In this document: in pieces, positions 7,345-62,540 of the stretch | How positions within the stretch are numbered: the first letter of the stretch is position 1 | Layout of the letters: every line of letters starts with the position of its first letter | NCBI GenBank assembly: GCA_951406725.2 | Contig: CATOCA020000001.1 | Coordinates: 7,936,001 to 8,000,000, forward strand | Length of the DNA stretch: 64,000 nt | DNA from: Octopus vulgaris | Lineage: Eukaryota | Direction of reading: 5' to 3' | Program-made: the position numbers and the translations under genes | The notes under the pieces: generated by a model | Told to the model about the DNA's origin: nothing | What the model saw: only the letters and a program-made list of their open reading frames with translations | Databases searched by the model: none

Positions 7345-7391
<47 letters not shown>

Positions 7392-7393
7392 GC

Positions 7394-7801
7394 AGGCGCA
7401 GGAGTGGCTGTGTGGTAAGTAGCTTGTTTACCAACCACATGGTTCCGGGTTCAGTCCCACTGCGCGGCATCTTGGGCAAGTGTCTTCTACTATTGTCTCG
7501 GACCGACCAAAGCATTTTGAGTGGATTTGGTAGACGGAAACTGAAAGAAGCCTGTCGTATATATGTATATATATGTGTGTATGTGTGTGTGTGTTTGTGT
7601 GTCTGTGTTTGTCCCTTTAGCATTGCTTGACAACCGATGCTGGTGTGTTTATGTCCCCGTTACTTAGCGGTTCGGCAAAAGAGACCGATAGAATAAGTAC
7701 TGGGCTTACAAAGAATAAGTCCCGGGGTCGATTTGATCGACTAAAGGCGGTGCTCCAGCATGGCCGCAGTCAAATGACTGAAACAAATAAAATAGTAAAG
7801 A

Positions 7802-7803
<2 letters not shown>
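7394..7803 (+). mobile_element. tRNA-derived CORE-like SINE (family A), full length
   Basis: A-box-like TGGCTGTGTGG, B-box-like GGTTCAGTCCC, CORE-like TTGGGCAAGTG, internal (TA/TG)n, and 3' tail GGCGGTGCTCCAGCATGGCCGCAGTCAAATGACTGAAAC. More than 15 copies or fragments occur in the window. Confidence 0.85.
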
Positions 7804-7838
<35 letters not shown>

Positions 7839-7985
7839 AAAAGCAATAAAGATTCAAGTTAATTTAAATGAATTTACTTGAATATGGTACCTAACTTAGA
7901 TGCACCAAAAAAAACTATACTGTTTTAACAATACAGTAATGTGGGGTGATTATAAGCGAGAATGAAGCAACAAGAATGGATAGGT

Positions 7986-8076
7986 TTTTAGTACAATCGT
8001 TTCATACAAGGACAGGTTTTATTAAAAGTTGCAAAAATTACAGCATATAAACGTGTCCCGTACTCATCAGCTAAAA
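7986..8076 (-). ncRNA. Type I minimal hammerhead ribozyme with long stem II, apparently intact
   Basis: The minus strand reads UUUUAG-CUGAUGA-GUACGGGACA...UGUCCUUGUAU-GAAAC-GAUU-GUA/CUAAAA. This gives a 6-bp stem I, complete core, extended stem II, short stem III and a GUA cleavage triplet. Confidence 0.75.
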
Positions 8077-8759
8077 TACATGTGAGTTCTCTAGACATCC
8101 TAGTGGTTGAGGCTATACTCATGAAGTAATGTAGATAATTAAGTAACATAAACAGATTTCAAAAGTTCATTAAAGTTCTTTAAAGATGATGTACAGTCTT
8201 ATCACAGAATTTTAAAAAAGTCTTAATAGCATCACAGAGAAGGTGACCTAATCCATAGTGCACATATGAATTTCCAGAGATATGATGAGGGATTACATAC
8301 TCACAGAAGACAAATTTATCCATTGTTAATTACAACGAGGTGGGTTTCAATTCCTGCTTATTAGCATTACAGAGAGGGTGAATTAATCCTTTGTATAGAT
8401 GCACATTTCCTACACCAATGGTGTAGGAAAATTGTGCATCTATACAAAGGATTAATTCACCCTCTCTGTAATGCTAATAAGCAGGAATTGAAACCCACCT
8501 CGTTGTATTAACAATGGATAAATTTGTCTTCTGTGAGTATGTAATCCCTCATCATATCTCTGGAAATTCATATGTGCACTATGGATTAGGTCACCTTCTC
8601 TGTGATGCTATTAAAGACTTTTTAAAATTCTGTGATAAACTGTACATCATCTTTAAAGAACTTTAATGAACTTTTGAAATCTGTTTATGTTACTTAATTA
8701 TCTACATTACTTCATGAGTATAGCCTCAACCACTAGGATGTCTAGAGAACTCACATGTA

Positions 8760-8848
8760 TTTTAGCTGATGGTACAGGACACGTTTATATACTGTAATTT
8801 TGCAACTTTTAATAAAACCTGTCCTTGGATGAAACGATTGTACTAAAA
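8760..8848 (+). ncRNA. Hammerhead ribozyme copy in right palindrome arm, core damaged
   Basis: UUUUAG-CUGAUG(-)GUACAGGAC...GUCCUUGGAU-GAAAC-GAUU-GUA/CUAAAA. It lacks the last A of CUGAUGA and has a mismatch near the base of stem II. Confidence 0.6.
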
Positions 8849-9162
8849 ACCTATCCATTCTTGTTGCTTCATTCTCGCGTATATATATATATATACACAG
8901 GTACCTATGTAGGCATAAATGCATATATATGCAGGCACATACATCTATATTTATATGAATATATATACAAATGCTGACAAGTGTGTGTGTGTACAGATTT
9001 GATAATGATGATGATGTTGATGATGATGATGATAGTCGTTTAATGGCTTAGATTAACAATCGACCTTTTGTTTGGCAAAACAAATTTTGTCAAGTCAGGT
9101 TTAAAGTCAGCAGGTGATAAACACTATTCAACAATTACAAAATAAGTGACACACCCAACCAT

Positions 9163-9218
<56 letters not shown>

Positions 9219-9494
9219 ACCATTACACACACACACACACACACATCCAGCTAATACCTTGTTACTAATGTTTAGAGCCCTGCCCAGGAGCTTCACATTC
9301 CGCGTTCGAATTCCACCAATGTCAACTTTGACTTTTATGCTTTTAGGGTCGATTAAATAAGGACCAGTTGAATATGGAGGTCGATATAAAAGGAAAGAAA
9401 ATCTCATAGAAGTTGCTTCTATGTTTCTTATCAAATGTCCGTGCTGTAATTGTTTTCAGAACCTTCTTAACAAGCTGCAAACATTTATATATAT

Positions 9495-9653
9495 ATATTA
9501 TATTAAATTAGAGATAAAACCACTATTAGGCAAATCTAACAGTGAAAAACATAAGCCAATGCATAAAATTGATTTAAAAATATAAAAGTTATAATTTAAA
9601 AAATTATTTAAATAATTTAAACTTATAAATTTTAAATATATATATACAAATAC

Positions 9654-9687
<34 letters not shown>

Positions 9688-10158
9688 ATGTATGTATATT
9701 TTTATATTTATATATTATTTTATTCATTAATTAATTTTTTTTTTCTTATTATATAAGTATCAAAATTATTAAAAGTTGTAATACTTTTGATATTTATATG
9801 ATAATAAAATAAATTAATAAATAAATAATTAAATAAATTAATTAATTAATAAATTATTAAATAAAATAATATATAAATATAAAAGATACATACATACACA
9901 CATTTATATATATATATATATTTGTATATATATATTTAAAATTTATAAGTATAAATTATGTAAATAATTTTTAAAGTTTAACTTTTATATTTTTAAATTA
10001 ATTTTATGTATTGGCTTATGTTTTTCACTGTTTGATTTGTCTAATAGTGGTTTTATCTCTAATTTAATATGATACAATATAATATATTTATACTATAAAA
10101 TTGGATTTAATCCTGAATATAATTTTTCCCAGTAACTTTGGATTTATTCCCTAATATT

Positions 10159-10165
<7 letters not shown>
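9495..10165. mobile_element. AT-rich fold-back element (copies at ~27025-27690, ~37715-38380; relative at ~63050-63450)
   Basis: ATATTAAATTAGAGATAAAACCACTATTAGGCAAATCTAACAGTGAAAAACATAAGCCAAT is inverted relative to ATTGGCTTATGTTTTTCACTGTTTGATTTGTCTAATAGTGGTTTTATCTCTAATTTAATAT. The element is flanked by (TA)n. Confidence 0.75.
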
Positions 10166-10190
<25 letters not shown>

Positions 10191-10898
10191 GACGGGCTTC
10201 TTTCAGTTTCCGTTCACCAAATTCACTCACAAGAGTTTGATGGCCCAAGGCAACAGTAAACACACTTGCCTAAATAGCCTCACACGCACTTTCTCTCCTT
10301 CTCTCCTTCTCTCACTCTCTCTCTCTCTCTCTCTCTCTCCCCTGGTGTGTTTATGTCCGCGTAACTTAGCTGTTCGGCAAAACAGATCGATAGGATAAGT
10401 ACTCGGCTTACAAAGGATATGTCCCCGGATTGATTTGTTTGACTTGTGAGACTTGAGAGACGTATGTGGGTGTATATAGAGTTGTTTACAGTGATAGAAG
10501 TATAATTTTTTTTTTTTATAAAAGCGACTTCAGTTGTTAATGTTAAGTCAAGTGTAACAACACTCTTCGCTTATTGTGGCATAAGTCACACAAACACCTT
10601 TTCTTCGATTCGCACACACACAGGCACACCTGTTTCATACTAACAATTACTACTAGAGACACACTCAATGACTTGTTAGTAATATTTATAACTATTCCTT
10701 GGTAATTTACATTCTGGGTTCGAATCCCGTCACCTTTTATCATTTGAGGGTCGATACAATTCTCTCAAGATTAACTTTGGCGTCGATATAATTAATTAGC
10801 AAAAGTTAAAACCTTATAATTGTAGTAAGCAGAATTATTTGTAGCTCGAGGTGCAACTTGTAGATGATTATTCTATTTATATAAGGACGTAGGGTGTA

Positions 10899-11460
10899 GG
10901 CGCGTGGCTTAGTGGTTAGGGTGTCAGCATCATGATCGCATGATTGTGGTTTCGATTCCTGGACGGGGCGACGCGTTGGGTTCTTGAGCAAAACACTTCA
11001 TTTCACGTTGCTCCAGTCCACTCAGCTGGCAAAAATGAGTAACGCTGCGATGGACTGGCGACCCCTCCAGCTGGGGATCACATACGCCATTGAAACCGGG
11101 AAACCGGGCCCATGAGCCTGTCTAGGCTTTAAAAGGGCGAATTTATTTTGTGAGGGCGCAATGGCTGTGTGGTTAGGGGAGCGGACTCGCGGTCGGAGGA
11201 TGGCGGTTTCGATTCCCAGACCGTGTGTTGTGTGTGTTTATTGAGCGAAAACACCTAATGCTCCACGAGGCTCAGGCAGGGTGTGGTGGCGAAGCCCTGT
11301 TCTACTCTTTCGTCCCAACTTTCTCTCATACTTTCTTCCTGTTTCTTTGGTAACGCTGTGATGGACTGGCGTCCCGTCCGGCTGGGGAACACATATGCCA
11401 CATAAACCGGGAAACCGGGCCCATGAGCGCTGACTAGGCTTGAAAAGGGCGCATAAAAAG
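10899..11460 (+). mobile_element. Two adjacent tRNA-derived SINEs (family B, Meta/CORE-like domain); paralog at ~39115-39672
   Basis: Heads GGCGCGTGGCTTAGTGGTTAGGG...GGTTTCGATTCC and GGCGCAATGGCTGTGTGGTTAGGG...GGTTTCGATTCCC. The body contains TTCTTGAGCAAAACACT, and both share the tail AAACCGGGAAACCGGGCCCATGAGC...AAAAGGGCG. Confidence 0.75.
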
Positions 11461-11899
11461 ATACGGACAGAGAATGGCACAGAGAGAACGAGTGTGAGTG
11501 AAAGAGAGGGAGAGTTTGAGTGAGGGAAAAACAATCTCATAAACCCCACTCCCAAGGAAGAGAAACTATGAGTTACTTCTACACATCCTCTTGGAGATTA
11601 TGTGAAGTTAATTTCACATGTGCCCCCGTCCAACTCCCGCATCTGGAGCCCACTTCTCTCTTGACTTCCATACCTCTGTATCTATTCTTGGCCTTTACTT
11701 TTCACGGGTTGCACCCTATAGTATTTCTGTTTTACTTCCATCAAATCAGTTATGGTCATTTCCACCATGGTAACAAGCTCCTATCTTCTTCCTTACTAAT
11801 TCTTCAGATCCTTTCAACCAAAACAGCTTCGTCATCAACATTTATTCTTGTTAGATAGTAACATTATCTTTAATAATATTTATATATCTTGTATATATA

Positions 11900-12300
11900 G
11901 GCGCAGGAGTGGCTGTGTGGTAGGTAGCTTGTTTACCAACCACATGGTTCCGGGATCAGTCCCACTGCGTGGCACCTTGGGAAAGTGTCTTCTACTATAG
12001 CCTCGGGCCGACCAAAGCCTTGTGAGTGGATTTGGTAGACGGAAACTGAAAGAAGCCCGTCGTATATATGTATATATATATATATGCGTGTGTGTGTTTG
12101 TGTCTGTGCTTGTGCCCCTAGCATTGCTTGACAACCGATGCTGGTGTGTTTATGTCCCCGTTACTTAGCGGTTCGGCAAAAGAGACCGATAGAATAAGTA
12201 CTGGGCTTACAAAAGAATAGGTCCCGGGGTCGAGTTGCTCGATTAAAGGCGGTGCTCCAGCATGGCCGCAGTAAAATGACTGAAACAAGTAAAAGAAACG
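11900..12300 (+). mobile_element. Family A SINE, full length (paralog ~40106-40500)
   Basis: Same head, CORE-like body and tail as 7394-7803. Confidence 0.85.
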
Positions 12301-12356
12301 AATAAAAGAAAAGAAACGAATATATAGATATATGTGTGTGCGTGTACATATATACT

Positions 12357-13250
12357 ACTATGGCACTCCGTCGGTTGAGACGAAGAGGTTTCCAGTTGAT
12401 CCAGTCAACGGAAGACTACTCGTGAAATTCTTTTCTACGCTAGACACAAGATCCGAAATTTTAGGGGAGTGGGCCATCGATTAGATCTACACCAGTACGA
12501 AACTTGTACTTGATTTATCTACACCGAAAGGATGAAAGGCAAAGTCGACCTCGACGGAATTTGAACTCAGAAAGTAAAGACAGACGAAATACCTATTTCT
12601 TTACTACCAACAGGGGGCTAAACAGAGAGGGGCAAACAAGGACAGACATAGGTATTAAGTCGATCATATCGACCCCAGTGCGTAACAGACCCTTATTTAA
12701 TCGACCCCGAAACGATGAAAGGCAAAGTCGACCTCGGCGGAATTTGAACTCAGAAAGTAAAGACAGACGAAATACCTATTTCTTTACTACCAACAGAGGG
12801 CTAAACACAGAGGGGACGAACAAGGACAGACAAACGGACGAAGTCGATTATATCAACCCCAGTGCGTAACTGGTCCTTATTTAATCGACCCCGAAACGAT
12901 GAAAGGCAAAGTCGACCTCGGCGGAATTTGAACTCAGAACGTAGCGACAGACGAAATACTGCTAAGTATTTCGCCAGGCGGAGCTAACGTTTCTGCCAGT
13001 TCGCCGCCTTAGACTCTTCGTGAAATTAATATGCAAGTAGCTGAGTACTCCACAGACACGTGTACCCTTAACGTAGTTCTCGGTGAGATTCAGCGTGACA
13101 CATAGTGTGACATGGCTGGCCCCTTTGAAATACAGGTACAACAGAAACAGGAAGACAGAGTGAGAGAAAGTTGTGGTGAAATAATACAGCAGGGTTCGCC
13201 ACCAGCCCTTGCTGGAGCCTCGAAGAGCTTTACGTGTTTTAGTTTAATGA
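12357..13250 (-). mobile_element. SINE body interrupted by a multimeric Nin/Deu-domain SINE (12430-13010) with ~17-bp target-site duplication; paralog ~40560-41450
   Basis: There are three tandem GATGAAAGGCAAAGTCGACCTCG(A/G)CGGAATTTGAACTCAG units (reverse complement of B-box + Nin-like GCCTTTCATC). They are flanked by AGACTACTCGTGAAATT (~12413) and AGACTCTTCGTGAAATT (~13011). Confidence 0.75.
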
Positions 13251-13449
13251 ACATTTGCGATGAGTTGGAATTTATTTCACATTCCTTGACAAGAATGACT
13301 CACCCTGCGATGGACTGTTGTCCCGTCCATATGCGGAATATATATGCCAAGGTAGACTGTTCCCATGCGTCTAGCTGCCAACAGAAGTAACTTTATTTAC
13401 TATTTATATATGTATATATATGTGTATGTATATGTGCGTATATATGTAT

Positions 13450-13755
13450 GTATTTGCTTGCTTTTTAAGTCTAGTATTTATTCTATCGGTACCTTTTGCC
13501 GAACCGCAAAGTTACGGGGACGTAAACACTACAGCATTGGTTGTGAAGCGATGGTGCGGTGACAAACACAAACACAAACATATATATATATATATACATC
13601 CGATGGGCTTCTTTCAGTTTCCATCTACCTAATCTACTCACAAGGATTGGGTCAGACCGTGGCTATAGAATAAGACACTCACCAAAGGTGCCTCGCAGTG
13701 AGATTGAACTCAGAACAATGTGGTAGGTAAGCAAGCTTCTCACCACACAGCCACG
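13450..13755 (-). mobile_element. Older diverged family A SINE (paralog ~41660-41915)
   Basis: TTTTGCCGAACCGC...CTTTCAGTTTCCATCTACC...CTTCTCACCACACAGCCAC matches the family A reverse complement. Confidence 0.65.
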
Positions 13756-13838
13756 TGTCACTTTTCAGCTTTCTATATATGAATGTATATATTTGTCTAT
13801 ATAAATATATTGTTATGAGCACACGTACATCGAGAAAT

Positions 13839-16769: not shown

Positions 16770-17055
16770 GGGTTGGGGTATGTGTTAAGTAGCCTGCGTA
16801 CCAAGCACATGGTTCCGTGTTCAGTCCCACTGCGTCGCACCTTGGGCGAGTGACTTCTACTATAGCTTCGGCCGACCAAAGCCTTGTGAGTGGATCTGGT
16901 TGACGGAAACTGAAGAAAGCCCCGTCGTAAATATGTACATGTTTGGCCCGAGACTATAGTAGAAAACACTTGCCCAAGCTGCCACACAGTGGGACTGATC
17001 TCGGAACCAGGTGGTTGGTAATCAAGCTACTTACCACTCAGCCACTCCTATGCCT
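16770..17055. mobile_element. Two family A SINE 5' halves in opposite orientation
   Basis: A plus-strand head runs ~16770-16930 (TTCAGTCCCACTGCG...GACGGAAACTGAAGAAAGCC) and a minus-strand head ~16940-17055 (ACTTGCCCAAG...CAGCCACTCC). Confidence 0.7.
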
Positions 17056-26573: not shown

Positions 26574-26702
26574 AGTCGTTTAATGGCTTAGATTAACAAT
26601 CGACCTTTTGTTTGGCAAAACAAATTTTGTCAAGTCAGGTTTAAAGTCAGCAGGTGATAAACACTATTCAACAATTACAAAATAAGTGACACACCCAACC
26701 AT

Positions 26703-26775
<73 letters not shown>

Positions 26776-27184
26776 CCAGCTAATACCTTGTTACTAATGT
26801 TTAGAGCCCTGCCCAGGAGCTTCACATTCCGCGTTCGAATTCCACCAATGTCAACTTTGACTTTTATGCTTTTAGGGTCGATTAAATAAGGACCAGTTGA
26901 ATATGGAGGTCGATATAAAAGGAAAGAAAATCTCATCGAAGTTGCTTCTATGTTTCTTATCAAATGTCCGTACTGTAATTGTTTTCAGAACCTTCTTAAC
27001 AAGCTGCAAACATTTATATATATACATATTATATTAAATTAGAGATAAAATTACTATTAGGCAAATCTAACAGTGAAAAACATAAGCCAATGCATAAAAT
27101 TGATTTAAAAATATAAAAGTTAAAATTTAAAAAATTATTTAAATAATTTAAACTTATAAATTTTAAATATATATATACAAATAC

Positions 27185-27216
<32 letters not shown>

Positions 27217-27823
27217 ATGTATGTATATTTTTATATTTATATATTATTTTATTCATTAATTAATTTATTTTTTTATTATATAAGTATCAAAATTATTAAA
27301 AGTTGTAATACTTTTGATATTTATATGATAATAAAATAAATTAATAAATAAATAATTAAATAAATTAATAAATTATTAAATAAAATAATATATAAATATA
27401 AAAGATACATACATACACACATTTATATATATATATATATATTTGTATATATATATTTAAAATTTATAAGTATAAATTACGTAAATAATTTTTTAAAGTT
27501 TAACTTTTATATTTTTAAATTAATTTTATGTATTGGCTTATGTTTTTCACTGTTTGATTTCTCTAATAGTGGTTTTATCTCTAATTTAATATGATACAAT
27601 ATAATATATTTATACTATAAAATTGGATTTAATCCTAAAGATAATTTTTCCCAGTAACTTTGGATTTATTCCCTAATATTATACATATATATATATATAT
27701 ATATATATATGACGGGCTTCTTTCAGTTTCCGTTCACCAAATTCACTCACAAGATTTTGATGGCCCAAGGCAACAGTAAACACACTTGCCTAAATAGCCT
27801 CACACGCTCTTTCTCTCCTTCTC

Positions 27824-27857
<34 letters not shown>

Positions 27858-28469
27858 GGTGTGTTTATGTCCGCGTAACTTAGCTGTTCAGCAAAACAGA
27901 TCGATAGGATAAGTACTCGGCTTACAAAGGATATGTCCCCGGATTGATTTGTTTGACTGGAGGCGGTGCTGCAGCATGGCCTCAGTCAAATGCCTCAAAA
28001 TATAGGGGAATGAACAAAAGAATATAGAGGGGGGGAGACGTATGTGTGTGTATATAGAGTTGTTTACTGGGATCTGGGATAGAAGTATAATTTTTTTTTT
28101 TTAAAAGCGACTTCAGTTGTTAATGTTAAGTCAAGTGTAACAACACTCTTCGCTTATTGTGGCATAAGTCACACAAACACCTTTTCTTCGATTCGCACAC
28201 ACACAGGCACACCTGTTTCATACTAACAATTACTACTAGAGACACACTCAATGACTTGTTAGTAATATTTATAACTATTCCTTGGTAATTTACATTCTGG
28301 GTTCGAATCCCGTCACCTTTTTTCATTTGAGGGTCGATACAATTCTCTCAAGATTAACTTTGGCGTCGATATAATTAATTAGCAAAAGTTAAAACCTTAT
28401 AATTGTAGTAAGCAGAATTATTTGTAGCTCGAGGTGCACCTTGTAGATGATTATTCTATTTATATAGAA

Positions 28470-37104: not shown

Positions 37105-37387
37105 GTAACTATGTAGGCATAAATGCATATATATGCAGGCATATACATCTATATTTATATGAATATATATACAAATGCTGACAAGTGTGTGTGTGTACAG
37201 ATTTGATAATGATGATGATGATGATGATGATGATGATAGTCGTTTAATGGCTTAGATTAACAATCGACCTTTTGTTTGGCAAAACAAATTTTGTCAAGTC
37301 AGGTTTAAAGTCAGCAGGTGATAAACACTATTCAACAATTACAAAATAAGTGACACACCCAACCATTATACACACACACACCTAACC

Positions 37388-37435
<48 letters not shown>

Positions 37436-37869
37436 ACCATTACACACACACACACACACATCCAGCTAATACCTTGTTACTAATGTTTAGAGCCCTGCCC
37501 AGGAGCTTGACATTCCGCATTCAAATTCCACCAATGTCAACTTTGACTTTTATGCTTTTAGGGTCGATTAAATAAGGACCAGTTGAATATGGAGGTCGAT
37601 ATAAAAGGAAAGAAAATCTCATCGAAGTTGCTTCTATGTTTCTTATCAAATGTCCGTACTGTAATTGTTTTCAGAACCTTCTTAACAAGCTGCAAACATT
37701 TATATATATATATATTATATTAAATTAGAGATAAAACCACTATTAGGCAAATCTAACAGTGAAAAACATAAGCCAATGCATAAAATTGATTTAAAAATAT
37801 AAAAGTTAAAATTTAAAAAATTATTTAAATAATTTAAACTTATAAATTTTAAATATATATATACAAATA

Positions 37870-37903
<34 letters not shown>

Positions 37904-38374
37904 ATGTATGTATATTTTATATATTTATATATTATTTTATTCATTAATTAATTTATTTTATATTATATAAGTATCAAAATTATTAAAAGTTGTAATACTT
38001 TTGATATTTATATGATAATAAAATAAATTAATAAATAAATAATTAAATAAATTAATTAATTAATAAATTATTAAATAAAATAATATATAAATATAAAAGA
38101 TACATACATACACACATTATATATATATATATATATTTGTATATATATATTTAAAATTTATAAGTATAAATTATGTAAATAATTTTTTAAAGTTTAACTT
38201 TTATATTTTTAAATTAATTTTATGTATTGGCTTATGTTTTTCACTGTTTGATTTGTCTAATAGTGGTTTTATCTCTAATTTAATATGATACAATATAATA
38301 TATTTATACTATAAAATTGGATTTAATCCTGAATATAATTTTTCCCAGTAACTTTGGATTTATTCCCTAATATT

Positions 38375-38406
<32 letters not shown>

Positions 38407-41400
38407 GACGGGCTTCTTTCAGTTTCCGTTCACCAAATTCACTCACAAGAGTTTGATGGCCCAAGGCAACAGTAAACACACTTGCCTAAATAGCCTCACA
38501 CGCTCTTTCTCTCCTTCTCTCCTTCTCTCACTCTCTCTCTCTCTCTCTCTCTCTCTCCCCTGGTGTGTTTATGTCCGCGTAACTTAGCTGTTCGGCAAAA
38601 CAGATCGATAGGATAAGTACTCGGCTTACAAAGGATATGTCCCCGGATTGATTTGTTTGACTTATGAGACTTGAGAGACGTATGTGGGTGTATATAGAGT
38701 TGTTTACTGTGATAGAAGTATAATTTTTTTTTTATAAAAGCGACTTCAGTTGTTAATGTTAAGTCAAGTGTAACAACACTCTTCGCTTATTGTGGCATAA
38801 GTCACACAAACACCTTTTCTTCGATTCGCACACACACAGGCACACCTGTTTCATACTAACAATTACTACTAGAGACACACTCAATGACTTGTTAGTAATA
38901 TTTATAACTATTCCTTGGTAATTTACATTCTGGGTTCGAATCCCGTCACCTTTTATCATTTGAGGGTCGATACAATTCTCTCAAGATTAACTTTGGCGTC
39001 GATATAATTAATTAGCAAAAGTTAAAACCTTATAATTGTAGTAAGCAGAATTATTTGTAGCTCGAGGTGCACCTTGTAGATGATTATTCTATTTATATAA
39101 GGACGTAGGGTGTAGGCGCGTGGCTTAGTGGTTAGGGTGTCAGCATCATGATCGTATGATTGTGGTTTCGATTATTGGACGGGGCGACGCGTTGGGTTCT
39201 TGAGCAAAACACTTCATTTCACGTTGCTCCAGTCCACTCAGCTGGCAAAAATGAGTAACGCTGCGATGGACTGGCGACCCCTCCAGCTGGGGAACACATA
39301 CGCCATTGAAACCGGGAAACCGGGCGCATGAGCCTGTCTAGGCTTTAAAAGCGCGAATTTATTTTGTAGAGGCGCAATGACTCTGTGGTTAGGGGAGCGG
39401 ACTCGCGGTCGGAGGATGGCGGCTTCGATCCCCAGACCGCGTGTTGTGTGTGTTTATTGAGCGAAAACACCTAATGCTCCACGAGGCTCAGGTAGGGGGT
39501 GGTGGCGAAGCCCTGTTCTACTCTTTCGCCCTAACTTTCTCTCATACTTTCTTCCTGTTTCTTTGGTAACGCTGTGATGGACTGGCGTCCCGTCCACCTG
39601 GAGAACACATACGCCACATAAACCGGGAAACCGGGCCCATGAGCACTGACTAGGCTTGAAAAGGGCGCATAAACAGATACGGACAGAGAATGGAACAGAG
39701 AGAACGAGTGTGAGTGAAGGAGAGGGAGAGTGTGAGTGTGGGCAAAACAATCTCATAAACCCCACTCCCAAGGAAGAGAAACTATGAGTTACTTCTACAC
39801 GTCCTCTTGGAGATTATGGGAAGTTAATTTCACATGTGCCCCCGTCCAACTCCCGCATCTGGAGCCCACTTCTCTCTTGACTTCCATACCTCTGTATCTA
39901 TTCTTGGCCTTTACTTTTCACGGGTTGCACCCTATAGTATTTCTGTTTTACTTCCATCAAATCAGTTTCCACCATGGTAACAAGCTCCTATCTTCTTCCT
40001 TACTAATTCTTCAGATCCTTTCAACCAAAACAGCTTCGTCATCAACATTTATTCTTGTTAGATAGTAACATTATCTTTAATGATATTTATATGTCTTGTA
40101 TATATAGGCATCGGAGTGGCTGTGTGGTAGGTAGCTTGTTTACCAACCACATGGTTCCGGGTTCAGTCCCACTGCGTGGCACCTTGGGCAAGTGTCTTCT
40201 ACTATAGCCTCGGGCCGACCAAAGCCTTGTGAGTGGATTTGGTAGATGGAAACTGAAAGAAGCCCGTCGTATATATGTATATATATATGCGTGTGTGTGT
40301 TTGTGTCTGTGTTTGTCCTCCTAGCATTGCTTGACAACCGATGCTGGTGTGTTTATGTCCCCGTTACTTAGCGGTTCGGCGAAAGAGACCGATAGAATAA
40401 GTACTGGGCTTACAAAAGAATAAGTCCCGGGGTCGAGTTGCTCGATTAAAGGCGGTGCTCCAGCATGGCCGCAGTCAAATGACTGAAACAAGTAAAAGAA
40501 ACGAATAAAAGAAAAGAAACGAATATATAGATATATGTGTGTGCGTGTACATATATACTACTATGGCACTCCGTCGGTTGAGACGAAGAGGTTTCCAGTT
40601 GATCCAGTCACCGGAAGACTTCTCGTGAAATTCTTTTCTACTCTAGGCACAAGGTCCGAAATTTTAGGGGAGTGGGCCATCGATTAGATCTACACCAGTA
40701 CGAAACTTGTACTTGATTTATGCAGCCCGAAACGATGAAAGGAAAAGTCGACCTCGACGGAATTTGAACTCAGAAAGTAAAGACAGACGAAATACCTATT
40801 TCTTTACTACCAACAGGGGGCTAAACACAGAGGGGACAAACAAGGACAGACATAGGTATTAAGTCGATGATATCGACCCCAGTGCGTAACAGGCCCTTAT
40901 TTAATCGACCCCAAAACGATGAAAGGCAAAGTCGACCTCGGCGGAATTTGAACTCAGAAAGTAAAGACAGACGAAATACCTATTTCTTTACTACCCAAAA
41001 GGCGCTAAACACAGAGGGGACAAACAAGGACAGACAAACGGATTAAGTCGATTATATCGACCCCAGTGTGTAACTGGTACTTAATTTATCGACCCTGAAT
41101 GGATGAAAGGTATAGTCGACCTCGGCGGAATTTGAACTCAGAACGTAGGGGCAGACGAAATACTGCTAAGCATTTCGCCAGGCGGGCTAACGTTTCTGCC
41201 AGCACGCCGCCTTAGACTCTTCGTGAAATTAACGTGCAAGTAGCTGAGTACTCCACAGACACATGTACCCTTAACGTAGTTCTCGGTGAGATTCAGCGTG
41301 ACACATAGTGTGACACGGCAGCCCCCTTTGAAATAAAGGTACAACAGAAACAGGAAGACAGCGTGAGAGAAAGTTGTGGTGAAATAATACAGCAGGGTTC

Positions 41401-41994
41401 GCCACCAGCCCATGCTGGAGCCTCGAAGAGCTTTAGGTGTTTTAGTTTAATGAACTCTTGCGACGAGTTGGACTTCATTTTACATTCCTTGGCTAGAATG
41501 ACTCACTCTGCGATGGACTGCTGTCCCGTCCATATGCGAAATATATAAGCCAAGGTAGACTGTTCCCATGCGTCTAGGCGCCAATGGAAGTAACTTTATT
41601 TACTATTTATATATGTATATATATATGTATGTATATGTGCGTATATATGTATGTATTTGCTTGCTTTTTAAGTCTAGTAGTTATTCTATCGGGAGCTTTT
41701 GCCGAACCGCAAAGTTACGGGGACCTAAACACAACAGCATTGGTTGTGAAGCGATAGTGCGTTGTTAAACGCTAGCACAAACACATATATATACATCCGA
41801 TGGGCTTCTTTCGGTCAGCCCGTGGCTATAGAATAAGACACTCGCCAAAGGTGCCACGCAGTGAGATTGAACTCAGAACAATATGGTAGGTAAGCAAGCT
41901 TCTCACCACACAGCCACGTGTCACTTTTCAGCTTTCTATATATGAATGTATATATTTGTATATATAAATATATTATGAGCACAAGTACATCGGG

Positions 41995-43104: not shown

Positions 43105-43746
43105 TTAAAAAAATGTTTTTGCCCGAAGGCCGCGGCCATGCTGGGGCACCACCGCTGAATGAGCTACACTAGTTTGTGAATCCACCTCTGATACGTGGCA
43201 CTTGATCAACAAGGGAGTTCGATGCTGCTGCCCGCATCCGCGTCTCCTGTCGTGAGGTAGGTTCATCTGGGACTCCCAACAAGAAGAGATCCAGTTTAGT
43301 TTTAAAGAAACCCACATCCACACCATGTAAGTCTCTCAGGCATTTAGGGAGGATGTTAAAGAGCTGTGGTCCTCTGAAACCCAAGCTGTTGCAGTATCTG
43401 GACCTGTATTTTGATGGTGATGTTGGAATCCTTGGCACCACGCAGCGGCGCCCCGTTCTGCGGTTGGAGTAACTTTGAATGCCAAATTTTGGGACAAGAC
43501 CCTCCAGGATTTTCCAGATGTATATCACTGCATATCTCTCCCGCCTCCGCTCTAGGGAGAAGAGGTTTAATACCTTCAGTCTTTCCCAGTAGCTGATATT
43601 TTGCATTGAGACGATTTTCTTTGTGTAGCTTCTCTGAATTGCTTCGAGTTCTGCTGTTTGTTTTATATTGTGTGGTGACCAAAGTTGGGAGCAGTAGTCC
43701 AAGCGGCTGAGGACGAATGTTTTCCATAGGACCATCAGTGGTCCTA
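43101..43746 (-). mobile_element. 5'-truncated CR1-like LINE 3' fragment, near identical to 59251-59890
   Basis: Translates [20 protein letters not shown]...[20 protein letters not shown]...RIRGGFTN. Inserted within (TA)n on both sides. Confidence 0.92.
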
Positions 43747-45727: not shown

Positions 45728-46412
<685 letters not shown>

Positions 46413-56665: not shown

Positions 56666-56884
56666 AATATATATATATATAAATATATGTGTGTGTGTGT
56701 ATATGTGTGTAAAATAAGTATGTATATATACATACATGAATATATATATGAAATATATTTGTGTATGTATGCATGCATATATATGTGTATGTATGTATAT
56801 ATATATATATGTATGTATGTATGTATATATATATATATATATTTATATACGTGTGTGCGTATGTATGTAATTTATGTGTATGTT

Positions 56885-56943
<59 letters not shown>

Positions 56944-56949
56944 ATATGT

Positions 56950-59899
56950 AATGCACTCACAGAAACGCATCTTGAACCCGATATAGGTGATGCAGAAATA
57001 CACATGCCGCAATATGCAGTCATACGCACAGATAGAAAAGGGAGGAGCCATGGTGGAGTTGCAATGTACATCCGAGATGACCTCACGCCCCAGGTCCTGC
57101 TGTCATATTCAAACTCAGTATGTGAAACTCAAATTGTACACATAAGACAACTGAATATCGTCATATGCACTACATATCGCCCACCAGATGCCCCAAAACA
57201 CTCAGGCATGTTTGAAGACTGCCTAACAAAAATAGAAGTCCTCACCAACCTTGAACAGCACAACAGTGTATTCTTCATGGGTGACTTTAACCTCCCCAAT
57301 GTGGGATGGCCTGTGGGGCAGATGCTCCCAGGGATGACACACCATCAGCAGGCACAGGTGGAGTCCCTGCTCCATCTCACAAATGCCTCTTTCATGGAGC
57401 AAATAGTTCTGCAACCAACAAGGGCAGATAATATACTGGATCTCTGCTTCACAAACAATATGGATATTATCCATAATGTTAATATGATGCCGACAATGAT
57501 CTCGGATCACAACATAATAGAGCTGTCTATGTATGGAACAAAAGCCCCCGTAGACACACAGCCTATACGAAGCACCCACCATCTCTCCAACTTAAACTTT
57601 CATAAAGCCAACTGGAAGTTGATTGAGAAAGAGATCCGCAAACAGGATTGGCCTGAATGTCTCTCCACACCGGACATAAACATGAAACACAAACACTTCA
57701 TGTCCATAATACAAGCCATATGTGACAAATATGTCCCAGTGTGCAGGGCTAGCACACACAAGAACAAAAACAGGATCCCTAGAGAAAGGAGGATTCTTAT
57801 GAGACGACGGACAAGAATTGCAAACCGCCTGAGCAAGCACACCAAAAGTGGTGAGAAGTCTCGGCTCGAAAGAATGCTAATGGAAACTGAGAAAAGTCTA
57901 CATCAGTCCCATGAAAAGGAGAGAGCAGATAAAGAAGCTTGGGTAATAGAAAATATAAAATCAAACCCTAAAGCTTTCTTTAAGTTTGCCAAAGAGACAG
58001 CCACAGTGCACCAGAGAATAGGACCTCTCTTCCAAAAAGATGGCTCTCTCACAGGAAATCCCACGAGGATAAGTGAAATACTGAACGAACAGTTCCAAAG
58101 TGTGTTCACTACACCTCTAGGACACAGGCAAGTAAACAACCCAGAAGAATTCTTTGCCACTTTACCTACGGCCAAAGAGACAAAAATTGAATACATCAAC
58201 ATCGAAGAGGATGATATCACACTAGCCATTGATGAGATTGTACAAACTCAGCTGCTGGACCTGATGGATTCCCAGCGATCCTTCTCAAATCGTGCAAACG
58301 AGCCCTTGCAAAACCGCTACAGCTTCTTTTTCAGAGCTTTCTTGCAAGTGGTAAGCTCCCAGTCAAATTGAAAGAGGGGGTAATATGCCCTATCTATAAG
58401 GGAGGTAGCAGAGCAGATGCTAAAAATTATAGGCCTATCTCTCTGACCTCACACATCAGCAAAGTCATGGAACGAATAGTCCGTAAGAAACTAATCATGT
58501 TCCTTGAAGAAAATGACTTGCTGTCTGACACCCAGCATGGATTTCGACCAGGTAGAGGCTGCCTAACACAGCTCCTGCAACACTATGACTGGGTGTTGAA
58601 ACAGCTACTAAATGGCTCAAATGTGGATGTAATATATCTCGACTTTGCAAAAGCCTTTGATAAAGTCGACCATGGTATGATCTGTCACAAACTGCGTGGT
58701 CTCGGCATAGGCGGGAAACTTGGAGAGTGGCTGCACAACTTCCTAAAAGACAGAAAACAGGCAGTTGTGAGCAATGGAGCCACCTCCAAGGAAACGCAAA
58801 TAACAAGCGGTGTCCCACAGGGCACTGTCTTGGGGCCACTGATGTTCATAGTGGCCCTTTCAGACATGCCTTCAGTTGCTACGATGACCACCCTTGCTAG
58901 CTATGCAGATGACACAAAAGTCTCCTCCCACGCAATACAAAACCCTGAAAATATTGCGCATCTGCAACATGAGCTGGACACAATATACAGGTGAGCTGAG
59001 GACAACAACATGCAGTTTAATGCAGGTAAGTTCCAGGCCCTGCGCTACTGGCACACAAAGGTAAATGACGTGAAGACTGGATACACTGGCCCAGGAAGAA
59101 TTGCAATCCCTGAGTCAAAATCAGTGCGTGACCTGGGCATTGACATGAGCAATGATGCATCTTTCCAAATGCATATTGCTAATCTGGTGATAAAATGCAG
59201 ACGGCTAGCTGGATGGATTCTCCGAACTTTCAGAACAAGAGAGAAGGAGACACTGATGGTCCTATGGAAAACATTCGTCCTCAGCCGCTTGGACTACTGC
59301 TCCCAACTTTGGTCACCACACAATATAAAACAAACAGCAGAACTCGAAGCAATTCAGAGAAGCTACACAAAGAAAATCGTCTCAATGCAAAATATCAGCT
59401 ACTGGGAAAGACTGAAGGTATTAAACCTCTTCTCCCTGGAGCGGAGGCGGGAGAGATATGCAGTGATATACATCTGGAAAATCCTGGAGGGTCTTGTCCC
59501 AAACTTTGGCATTCAACGTTACTCCAACCGCAGAACGGGGCGCCGCTGCGTGGTGCCAAGGATTCCAACATCACCATCAAAATACAGGTCCAGATACTGC
59601 AACAGCTTGGGTTTCAGAGGACCACAGCTCTTTAACATCCTCCCTAAATGCCTAAGAGACTTACACGATGTGGATGTGGGTTTCTTTAAAACTAAACTGG
59701 ATCTCTTCTTGTTGGGAGTCCCAGATGAACCTACCTCACGACAGGAGACGCGGATGCGGGCAGCAGCATCGAACTCCCTTGTAGATCAAGTGCCACGTAT
59801 CAGAGGTGGATTCACAAACTAGTGTAGATCATTCAGCGGTGGTGCCCCAGCATGGCTGCGGCCTTCGGGCTAAAACATTTTTAAGGATTTAAGGATTTA
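56950..59899 (+). mobile_element. CR1-like LINE: APE endonuclease + reverse transcriptase ORF2, disabled by one frameshift (~58240) and one stop (58992), 5' truncated
   Basis: EN motifs: ALTETHL, GGVAMYI, YRPP, MGDFNLP, ILDLCFT, SDHNII. RT motifs: AAGPDG, NYRPISLTS, QHGFRPGR, YLDFAKAFDKVDH, SGVPQGTVLGP, YADD. Ends with SLERRR, a short 3' UTR and an (AAGGATTT)n tail. Confidence 0.95.
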
Positions 59900-60529: not shown

Positions 60530-60809
60530 CCGTGATCACCGTGACCGACCATCAGATGTTGCTACACATCGCTGGTCACAATGCTTTTGTATTGTTTTAG
60601 CCTTCGAACGACGCCACCCCGCTGGCTCAGCGAGCAGGCCAACAGAAGAAAGAGAGAGAGAAAGAGTGGTGAAAGGGTACAGCAGGAATCACCCCCCCCT
60701 GTCGGAGCTTCGTGGAGCTTTTAGGTGTTTTCGCTCAATAAACACACACAACGCCCGGTCTGGGGATCGAAGCCGCGTTCCTCCGACCGCGAGTCCGCTG
60801 CCCTAACCA
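60530..60809 (-). mobile_element. tRNA-derived SINE immediately 5' of the Penelope-like element
   Basis: The reverse complement begins TGGTTAGGGCAGCGGACTCGCGGTCGGAGG...GCTTCGATCCCCAGACC, the same head as the 11153 SINE. Confidence 0.7.
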
Positions 60810-62192
60810 CAATTCGATATTGTTGATTTTTATGCCTCTATCTCTAAAGAACTGCTACATAAAGCCCTCATCTTCGCTAGTGACTTCATAGAAATTAGTA
60901 CCAATGATAAGGACATAATCTTCCATGCTAGAAAGACATTACTTTTCAGTGAGAACGCAAAGTGGGTAAAAAACACCGACACAGAGGGCGCTTTCGATGT
61001 GAGCATGGGTTCATATGATGGGGCAGGCATCTGTGATCTAATTGGACCTTTTCTCCTAGATACCTTAGGTAAGACATTCCCTAACGTACATTTCGCCATA
61101 TACAAAGATGATGCCCTCGCCTTAACAGCTAATACAAATGGACCAGCACAAGATCGTTTTAGGAAGGATATTATCCAGTTAATGAAACACTTCGGACTTA
61201 GTATAACTATAGATACTAACCTGACCGTTGTCAATTTCTTAGACGTTTCCTTAGATCTTAATAAGAATATTTATAAGCCTTATAGGAAGCCCAATGATAG
61301 ACTAAGTTATATTAATGTAGGTTCATGCCATCCCCCTATAGTATTCAAAAATTTAGTTAAAAATATTAGTAAGAGGATTTCTAGCCACTCATCTGATGAG
61401 GACATCTTCAATAGCGTTGCCCCAGTTTATAATAAGGCTTTAAAAGATAGTGGTTTTAGCGATAAAATAAAATATACACCTATCACTAGCCCAACAGTAA
61501 GGAAAAGGAATAATAGAAATAGGAAGGTCATCTGGTTTACGCCCCCTTACTCACCCGAGGTGGCCTTCAATATAGGTAAATATTTCCTAGCACTGATATA
61601 TAGACATTTTCCAGTTAACCATACTTATAGGAAACTCTTCAATAGACACAATTTAAAAATCAGTTTTAGTTCAACTACCAATTTTAAAAACATAATCAAA
61701 CATAACATACAAAAAACACAAGAAGAAAACAGCTGTTCATGCAGGAATAAAGAATTGTGCCCGCTAAATGGAGCTTGCATGTCTAAGACCATCATATATG
61801 AAGCTACCGTAAACTCTATAACCACTCAAGACACCGTTTCGACGAAGAAATACGTGGGCCTGACAGAGGGTAATTTCAAGGCCAGGTTCGATAACCACAC
61901 TTTGAGCTTTAGGCACTGGAACAAAAAAAAAGCGACACAATTATCCAATCACATTTGGTCTTTAAGAGATAAAGGTGTCGATTATAACATACAATGGAAG
62001 ATTTTGGCCAGATGTAAGCCCTACACCAACGGCAGCGGAAGGTGCGGTCTATGCGACATGGAGAGATGGCTTATCTGGAAAAGCAGCTTAGACCCTACTA
62101 CATGTCTAAATACAAGGACAGAGCTTTTCGGATCATGCCCATATGTGACTAAATTTCTGTTACGTTTTTGGTCCCCTAAAGAAAACAGATAG
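60807..62192 (+). CDS. Penelope-like element ORF (5'-truncated RT + C-terminal GIY-YIG endonuclease); stop-free for ~460 codons
   Basis: The frame is open from QFDIVDFYASISKELL through FDVSMGSYDGAGICDLIG, YKDDAL, VNFLDVSLDL and YINVGSCHPP. It continues through linker CSCRNKELCPLNGAC to the GIY-YIG motifs IIYEATV..KYVGLTEGNFKARFDNH and CGLCDMER..LNTRTEL. Confidence 0.9.
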   Translation, partial: PQFDIVDFYASISKELLHKALIFASDFIEISTNDKDIIFHARKTLLFSENAKWVKNTDTEGAFDVSMGSYDGAGICDLIGPFLLDTLGKTFPNVHFAIYKDDALALTANTNGPAQDRFRKDIIQLMKHFGLSITIDTNLTVVNFLDVSLDLNKNIYKPYRKPNDRLSYINVGSCHPPIVFKNLVKNISKRISSHSSDEDIFNSVAPVYNKALKDSGFSDKIKYTPITSPTVRKRNNRNRKVIWFTPPYSPEVAFNIGKYFLALIYRHFPVNHTYRKLFNRHNLKISFSSTTNFKNIIKHNIQKTQEENSCSCRNKELCPLNGACMSKTIIYEATVNSITTQDTVSTKKYVGLTEGNFKARFDNHTLSFRHWNKKKATQLSNHIWSLRDKGVDYNIQWKILARCKPYTNGSGRCGLCDMERWLIWKSSLDPTTCLNTRTELFGSCPYVTKFLLRFWSPKENR

Positions 62193-62540
62193 AACATGCT
62201 TTCTATGTTATGTCCCAAGAAGAATTTATATATTTTTTATATATTTTTATATATTTTTTATATATTTTTTATGTATTTTTATGTAATTTTTATGACGAAA
62301 AATGCAAGCGATGTATAAGTACGCAGGCAAGCAGAGTTATAACAGAGTAATTTCCCTTTATTTAACGGTATTTTTTCATAACGTTTTCAAATAGCCAGAT
62401 AACCGAAGAGATGGTGTTGTGGATTTCTCAGAGTTTTATCTTGACTACCGAGTAATGTAACATATTGTATAGATAAATGTCCTCTATTTACATAATATTG
62501 AGGTCTCCTTCTTTCTTTTGTTATCTTACCCTTTTATCAA
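60807..62540 (+). mobile_element. Penelope-like retroelement (possibly Hydra clade) including 3' pseudo-LTR region ending at (TA)n
   Basis: Comprises the ORF above plus a 3' region with a broken HHR (62392-62447) and a terminus shared with 28850-28950. Confidence 0.85.

Follow-up and report, generated by a model that had tools for sequence, protein, structure and literature searches.

The window analysed here, a stretch of 64,000 nucleotides, contains a nearly perfect palindrome flanked on both sides by TA runs and extended on its left side only. The features assigned at the locus, in window coordinates, were as follows.

7803..7836, no strand: (TA)17 run, left side of the inferred target, following a SINE-like repeat
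7837..7955, minus strand: tail, a one-sided, multi-copy 3' extension of 106-118 nt with AT-rich hairpins, its outer end lying between 7837 and 7849
7956..8417, minus strand: left arm, a non-coding, 5'-truncated sense copy of the 3' region of the repeat (from alignment)
7986..8076, minus strand: type I hammerhead motif with complete core, G10.1-U11.1 and a 60-nt stem II (from descriptor, Rfam and folding)
8004..8063, minus strand: long stem II, an irregular hairpin spanning 60 nt (from folding)
8222..8410, minus strand: old internal direct repeat, present in each arm (copies 8357-8410 and 8222-8275)
8418, no strand: head-to-head junction, a 1-nt centre where the two arms share their truncation point
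8419..8879, plus strand: right arm, an inverted 5'-truncated copy without the tail, stopping 37 nt past the predicted cut
8760..8848, plus strand: damaged hammerhead copy, with A9 missing and the core-proximal stem II pair and an apical pair broken
8880..8895, no strand: (TA)8 run, right side of the inferred target

The arms were compared by global alignment of 7951-8417 with the reverse complement of 8419-8884. The left arm (7956-8417) and the right arm (8419-8878, or about 8879) were identical in 458 of 471 columns, and blastn of the arms returned 97.3% identity over 941 columns. The palindrome announced in a preliminary description of this DNA, with two arms of about 465 bp and practically no spacer, is present in the assembly, and its centre is the single unpaired base 8418. 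Its limits had been drawn too widely, at 7951..8883: the outer 4 nt (7951-7954) match only the (TA)n target, at the right-hand TA run, and the identity of the arms truly ends at 7956/8878. The internal differences comprised three substitutions and seven indel events, five of the latter being single bases absent from the right arm. The junction lies 426 nt upstream of the predicted hammerhead cut. The alignment of the arms displays an inverted, 5'-truncated copy joined head to head, as in insertions of Penelope-like elements (PLEs). Inside each arm, a 54-nt direct repeat (74% identical, 135 nt apart, E 3.5e-7) suggests an old duplication within the family unit. The short end lies one base ahead of the family TATA (7951-7954 versus 8880-8883); in this single case, the TATA at the short end could possibly pair with the TA target as a priming microhomology. 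Elsewhere in the window, an 80-bp near-perfect palindrome was noted at 46331-46410, in which a hammerhead core was not seen.

On the minus strand of the left arm, the type I hammerhead proposed at 7986-8076 was recovered as described, with coordinates, core, GUA triplet and cut site all found. Stem I is formed by 8071-8076 with 7986-7991 (6 bp), the core by CUGAUGA (8070-8064) and GAAA (8003-8000), and stem III by AC-GAUU-GU; the GUA triplet occupies 7994-7992, and the predicted cut falls between 7992 and 7991. Core positions C3-A9, G12-A15 and U16-H17 are intact, and stems I, II and III can pair around them with 6, 4 or more and 2 bp, respectively, stem I being open-ended. The 10.1-11.1 pair is G-U and not G-C. 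The proposed check with a type I descriptor came out in favour of the motif, which was the sole match on both strands of the 64 kb. In dinucleotide shuffles of the arm, a loose match arose in 1 of 20,000 and a strict match in 0 of 20,000, and shuffles of the whole window (n = 100) gave a mean of 0.01 strict matches. The left motif is far beyond chance. The Rfam check gave a divided answer: Hammerhead_1 (RF00163) matched exactly 7986-8076, but its 18.4 bits (E 0.044) lie under the 34-bit gathering score, and the match was unlisted in an Rfam scan of 4 kb. The RF00163 model has 45 positions, and the long stem II counts in it as an insertion. The motif is located within a terminal repeat, as in PLE insertions. 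A 108-nt contig over 8053-8160, carrying the 5' core in its left-arm form, matched without any other letter at a depth of 492.

In folding of the monomer, the hammerhead lay above the free ensemble by 3.7 kcal/mol when taken alone and by 6-7 kcal/mol in context; the pair probabilities of stem I were near 0, and the hammerhead was not the predicted minimum fold. Stem III proved as minimal and weak as had been described (2 bp). Its strand is self-complementary, giving an 8-bp duplex between two copies (-5.8 kcal/mol), and a common family variant turns it into a perfect palindrome. Dimer-cleaving PLE hammerheads are reportedly the subject of a paper in RNA Biology. The weak monomer and the 8-bp stem III pairing, both predicted by folding, would fit cleavage as a dimer or with the assistance of a protein, modes described in the available sections of PMC3088659 and PMC7229834.

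The term "apparently intact", applied earlier to the ribozyme, is correct of the left copy alone, and there as a statement about sequence; the right copy is damaged. The loss of one core A on the right was found (A9 is missing), and two further pairs that had escaped notice are broken: a change at 8828, the mirror of 8006, disrupts the core-proximal stem II pair, and an apical pair is disrupted as well. The right copy gave no descriptor match. Because the indel-rich differences between the arms could be sequencing errors, the loss of A9 may not be real. The right-arm bin 8780-8824 was almost without contig cover and its mirror was deep; the uncovered part is not evidential.

Stem II folds with -11.3 kcal/mol (z -1.86), and 44 of 1000 shuffles fold as well, so that its predicted folding is modestly better than chance. 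A candidate docking of stem II on the tail through a 9-nt complement was rejected as chance, since 229 of 500 shuffles do as well. Among the literature matches listed, "long stem II" did not occur as a phrase, and examples are possible in further papers or supplements.

The element had been described as symmetric and is not: about 106-118 nt of extra multi-copy DNA, the tail, continue beyond the palindrome on the left. One contig covered 7849-7962 with a single other letter at a depth of 198, and a second covered 7886-7980 at a depth of 103. In all four runs, 7835-7955 stood at multi-copy depth, as the arms do. The two contigs crossing the boundary between arm and tail enter the arm by just 7 and 25 nt; as these overlaps are shorter than the 31 letters set for bridging, the continuity of arm and tail is supported but unproven. 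No part of the left side is more structured than the tail: its 60-nt windows (z -2.9 to -3.8) were the only 3 of 18 with z below -1, and the tail contains an inverted repeat at 7852-7883. Restriction of the tail to one end is a feature of PLE insertions, and this tail is longer than those published. To the left of the (TA)17 run, a high-copy SINE-like repeat occupies about 7390-7802 and has many copies in the window; we take it to be of octopus type, and together with the microsatellite load and a Hydra-like ORF of the window it fits an octopus. Inside (TA)n, a target-site duplication is unreadable. A (TA)n target combined with a canonical hammerhead is found in the Hydra clade of PLEs; the target alone is not diagnostic of that clade, since Naiad also targets (TA)n and Neptune also has a microsatellite bias. 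The Hydra clade is further characterised by protein motifs (RWK, DKT, a CxCX5C linker, no CCHH), and the present element contains no coding sequence.

That the arms are non-coding, as had been stated, was borne out. They contain no open reading frame (ORF) above 56 aa, none of three element frames reached the Pfam cut-off, and a protein search with one frame, a weak test, returned five candidates, none at E 1 or better; coding potential of the arms was rejected on these three grounds. The motif is preceded by at least 347 nt of non-coding DNA, and these 347 nt do not match the PLE protein encoded elsewhere in the window (best E 0.17). An ORF of the same family with reverse transcriptase (RT) plus GIY-YIG is absent from this copy. 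That PLE protein is encoded at 60807-62192 (plus strand) by a 5'-truncated ORF of 461 aa of RT plus GIY-YIG type, whose motifs resemble Hydra-clade PLEs by eye and which has no Pfam match at E 1. At the 3' end of its element, a half core lies at 62403, no partner was found for it, and the element ends in (TA)n near 62540. This ORF was considered as the parent and rejected, having no sequence relation to the palindromic element. Rfam microRNA matches at the palindrome centre were below gathering and reflect the hairpin alone.

Other repeats of the window were recorded as well. A LINE-like element at 56752-59822 (plus strand) carries endonuclease and RT frames in pieces, and its 3' 630 bp are repeated in inverted orientation at 43109-43740 (98%). 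Two diverged SINE heads meet in an inverted joint at 16782-17037 (about 70% identity). Short repeats occur twice each beside long TA runs (14592-14786/42170-42364 and 15214-15410/42759-42955), one pair being inverted. Segmental duplications of 95-100% identity involve 9034-13773, 26574-28466 and 37238-41936; they start about 150 bp to the right of the palindrome and exclude it, and therefore provide no empty site.

Words of 7840-8420 were present to 72-90% in 20 of the 24 listed sequencing runs, from nine studies; none of the runs listed as containing these words was an RNA run, which says nothing for or against transcription. The contigs of four of these 24 runs were aligned to the locus, where the flanking SINE swamped the result; among the matches listed for these four SINE-swamped runs, no contig spanned the palindrome centre. 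A 101-nt arm contig reached a depth of 2691, compared with 15-22 for the longest listed contigs of the same run, which suggests a family of roughly 100 or more copies, contig depth not being equal to copy number. Summed contig depth, which likewise does not equal copy number, peaked around the ribozyme and fell off towards the centre in all four runs. At all 21 listed family-variable sites inside the arm, both arms carried the same letter, and the shared letters include ones that were minor in one run. Variants numbered 4 in the 91 nt of the motif and 17 in about 300 nt elsewhere in the arm (40 of 44 rows); family variants are no rarer inside the motif than elsewhere. The motif variants, at least four, comprise one that keeps a stem II pair (G-C to G-U), one that perfects the stem III palindrome and two in loops; among the variants listed, the core and stem I are unaffected, and compensation on both sides of a pair does not occur.

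In metagenomes, neither exact nor degenerate DNA patterns of the element had a match. A loose pattern had three there, none of which resembles the element (best blastn E 0.086) and in none of which stem I is formed, as judged by eye. The patterns had no match in viral contigs either, and four short motifs of the element were not found in the available part of the PMC8557442 supplement, in which line breaks could hide a match. The absence of the family is thus stated for metagenomes, viral contigs and that part of the supplement. Among the literature matches listed for hammerheads and octopus, there was no study of this element. One metagenome contig (L001, 1518-1603, minus strand) contains the two halves of the hammerhead core, separated by 65-70 nt, with stem III letters identical to those of the motif; a short microsatellite follows after 60 bp. 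Stem I of this contig is unpaired, and the contig has no similarity to the element.

The palindrome itself had been interpreted as a self-cleaving fold-back element, a reading that the analysis did not support. Each strand carries one sense hammerhead only, at its 3' end; the two motifs point outwards on different strands, and the antisense arm is the first that a read-through RNA would encounter. The predicted fold of such an RNA has -799.7 kcal/mol, compared with -681.1 kcal/mol with the hammerhead forced, i.e., the hairpin is about 118 kcal/mol more stable. The hammerhead is accordingly predicted to be buried in a hairpin of about 460 bp, and the fold-back would switch the ribozyme off. With the hairpin favoured to this extent, self-cleavage and fold-back double-stranded RNA would be mutually exclusive in one transcript, and dimerisation within one RNA is impossible as the motifs lie on opposite strands. 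The fold-back is most likely a by-product of insertion. If transcribed, the modelled hairpin would be an ordinary ADAR substrate, and action of ADAR or Dicer on any transcribed palindrome is plausible. Hairpins of great length and near-perfect pairing are a common feature of octopus, and frog palindromic repeats undergo heavy editing (PMC5625713, available sections). The analysis provided no evidence for a new self-cleaving fold-back RNA or for a special ADAR/Dicer pathway.

We consider it probable that the locus represents one young insertion into a TA microsatellite by a Penelope-like enzyme, in which the hammerhead-bearing end of an RNA was copied twice. The PLE enzyme would have cut (TA)n, and reverse transcription of a single RNA would have begun at two sites bracketing the structured tail, one 37 nt and the other about 143-155 nt beyond the ribozyme cut. 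Synthesis of both cDNAs would have ended at one shared base, 426 nt upstream of that cut, and the two would then have been joined, resulting in two head-to-head arms with the tail on one side. Hammerhead activity is predicted for the parent RNA, where it would probably be weak or take place in a dimer of two copies, whereas this copy is predicted to be inactive. A palindrome built at insertion is suggested by its tail, present on one side only, and by the (TA)n target. Counting against this reading are the length of the tail, the short contig overlaps at its boundary with the arm, the unreadable target-site duplication, the unfavourable monomer fold and the family variants, which are not depleted in the motif; nor was a parent element or tandem array of the family seen in the window. 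As regards the template, we incline slightly towards a non-coding retrozyme-like unit, in whose direction the at least 347 non-coding bases upstream of the motif point; a long 3' end of an autonomous element is a serious candidate whose likelihood falls just short of even. An unlikely elaboration would make this a functional animal hammerhead in which stem II is a selected domain, e.g., a protein-binding switch replacing loop-loop docking, the tail is a landing pad for the enzyme, and the copy records both cDNAs from one non-coding RNA ending at the same base.

The mirror arm might instead have arisen later, by DNA-level fold-back duplication during repair or replication of a single 5'-truncated copy consisting of the tail and left arm. 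The 1-nt centre and the arms ending at the same base are what snap-back synthesis leaves, and the identity of the arms at 21 of 21 listed family-variable letters is in line with it; the shared letters fit a single RNA template for both arms equally well, and they are also expected from copying of a whole palindrome. We regard a later duplication as improbable, because the right arm stops at (TA)8, 37 nt past the cut, with neither the tail nor the left flank copied, and because fixed one-sided tails are a described feature of PLE insertions. Mobility of the whole palindrome, as a self-cleaving fold-back RNA cut near each end and copied as a unit, would agree with a complete left motif far beyond chance and with a non-coding, multi-copy family, yet it is very unlikely given the single sense hammerhead per strand, the advantage of about 118 kcal/mol for the hairpin, the asymmetric ends and the right motif damaged at three places. 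The summed depth, highest round the ribozyme and lower near the centre in 4 of 4 runs, also speaks against it, depth again not being copy number.

An assembly artefact, caused by a long read folded back at 8418, was considered on account of the indel-rich differences (seven indel events versus three internal substitutions, with five single bases missing on the right). Such a single-base pattern resembles long-read error. A read of this kind would, however, have duplicated the SINE, its TA run and the tail in mirror image as well, whereas the symmetry breaks off at a point that makes biological sense and the left and right flanks are unlike; the same layout has, moreover, been published in other animals. 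As the flanks are not mirrored, an artefact of the whole structure is highly improbable, although base-level errors in one arm are possible even with a real structure. Hardly credible, finally, is a DNA transposon of the MITE or foldback type, bounded by long terminal inverted repeats, which acquired a hammerhead-like stretch by capture or chance: its long inverted arms, non-coding and multi-copy nature and TA at both ends would be accounted for, but not the asymmetric ends with a one-sided multi-copy tail, nor a motif that is not chance and is accompanied by PLE-type traits.

The insertion by a Penelope-like enzyme, which we prefer, bears on two questions. A stem II of this length escapes short-stem descriptors and scores under the Rfam threshold, so that counts of such animal ribozymes are probably too low; whether cleavage tolerates a stem II of 60 nt could be tested simply with this family. 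Young insertions with two arms, one end short and the other long, would naturally record how PLE enzymes begin and complete reverse transcription, which is only partly known (PMC11167929 and section 15 of PMC8557442, available text).

The link to PLEs and retrozymes suggested beforehand is supported by the PLE-type layout, the (TA)n target, the motif traits and the non-coding sequence. Insertions of endonuclease-bearing PLEs consist of an inverted 5'-truncated copy and a one-sided tail, with published tail lengths of 30-40 bp (available sections of PMC8557442 and PMC3846280). They share with our element the head-to-head arms, the tail at one end, the hammerhead near the 3' end and the palindromic inverted junction, and differ from it, as far as these sections go, in that the present copy has no ORF and a tail of 106-118 nt, roughly three times as long as those published. 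Pairs of hammerheads on opposite strands, at distances of 100-700 bp, were described in 2014 and ascribed to truncated PLEs (PMC4209133, available part). The minimal dimer-type PLE hammerheads of that report likewise have a weak palindromic stem III and opposite-strand pairs; in contrast to them, our motif lacks the extra base between positions 9 and 10.1, has G-U in place of the conserved G10.1-C11.1 and has a much longer stem II. The layout is thus already known, and as a single insertion the locus is genomic debris of a described kind.

Within the accessible rows of File S2 of PMC8557442, 26 of 27 Hydra-clade families are marked (TA)n, and Penelope-13_HM combines an inverted 5' copy with hammerheads on each of its strands. 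Hydra-clade PLEs, including Hydra-1_Obim and Penelope-13_HM (Files S2 and S7, same source), resemble our element in the (TA)n target and the type I motif near the 3' end. The G10.1-U11.1 pair is as drawn for Penelope-13_HM and -17_HM, and the palindromic stem III and the A at the cut recur in several File S2 rows. In the six Hydra consensi available in File S7, the distance from stop codon to core is about 50-220 nt (by eye), compared with at least 347 non-coding nt here. For the Poseidon enzyme in vitro, the available text of PMC11167929 describes reverse transcription that begins at two internal sites bracketing the tail, and a hammerhead that cleaves only with protein and is dispensable for insertion. 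Metazoan non-LTR retrozymes (PMC7229834 and bioRxiv 10.64898/2026.07.22.740005, available sections) are likewise non-coding and dispersed with a type I hammerhead, and the size of our element is within their unit range of 51-972 bp. Retrozymes consist of tandem units, each with a hammerhead; this copy contains no tandem unit and is therefore not classed as a retrozyme. No 10-mer is common to both ends of the 581-nt left side, so any unit would exceed about 570 nt.

The 60-nt stem II is the least ordinary feature of the element. In the 26 Hydra-clade hammerheads among the available File S2 rows (PMC8557442), stem II spans 9-24 nt by eye, and the span here is 2.5 or more times the longest of these published examples. 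A long stem II region is also present in the plant elements PLE-X1_sMoe and PLE-X1_sTam of the same file, which its authors mark as deviating and which differ from ours in being endonuclease-negative and targeting 28S rDNA. With 52 nt in PLE-X1_sMoe, a stem II of 60 nt is uncommon, yet it has a precedent.
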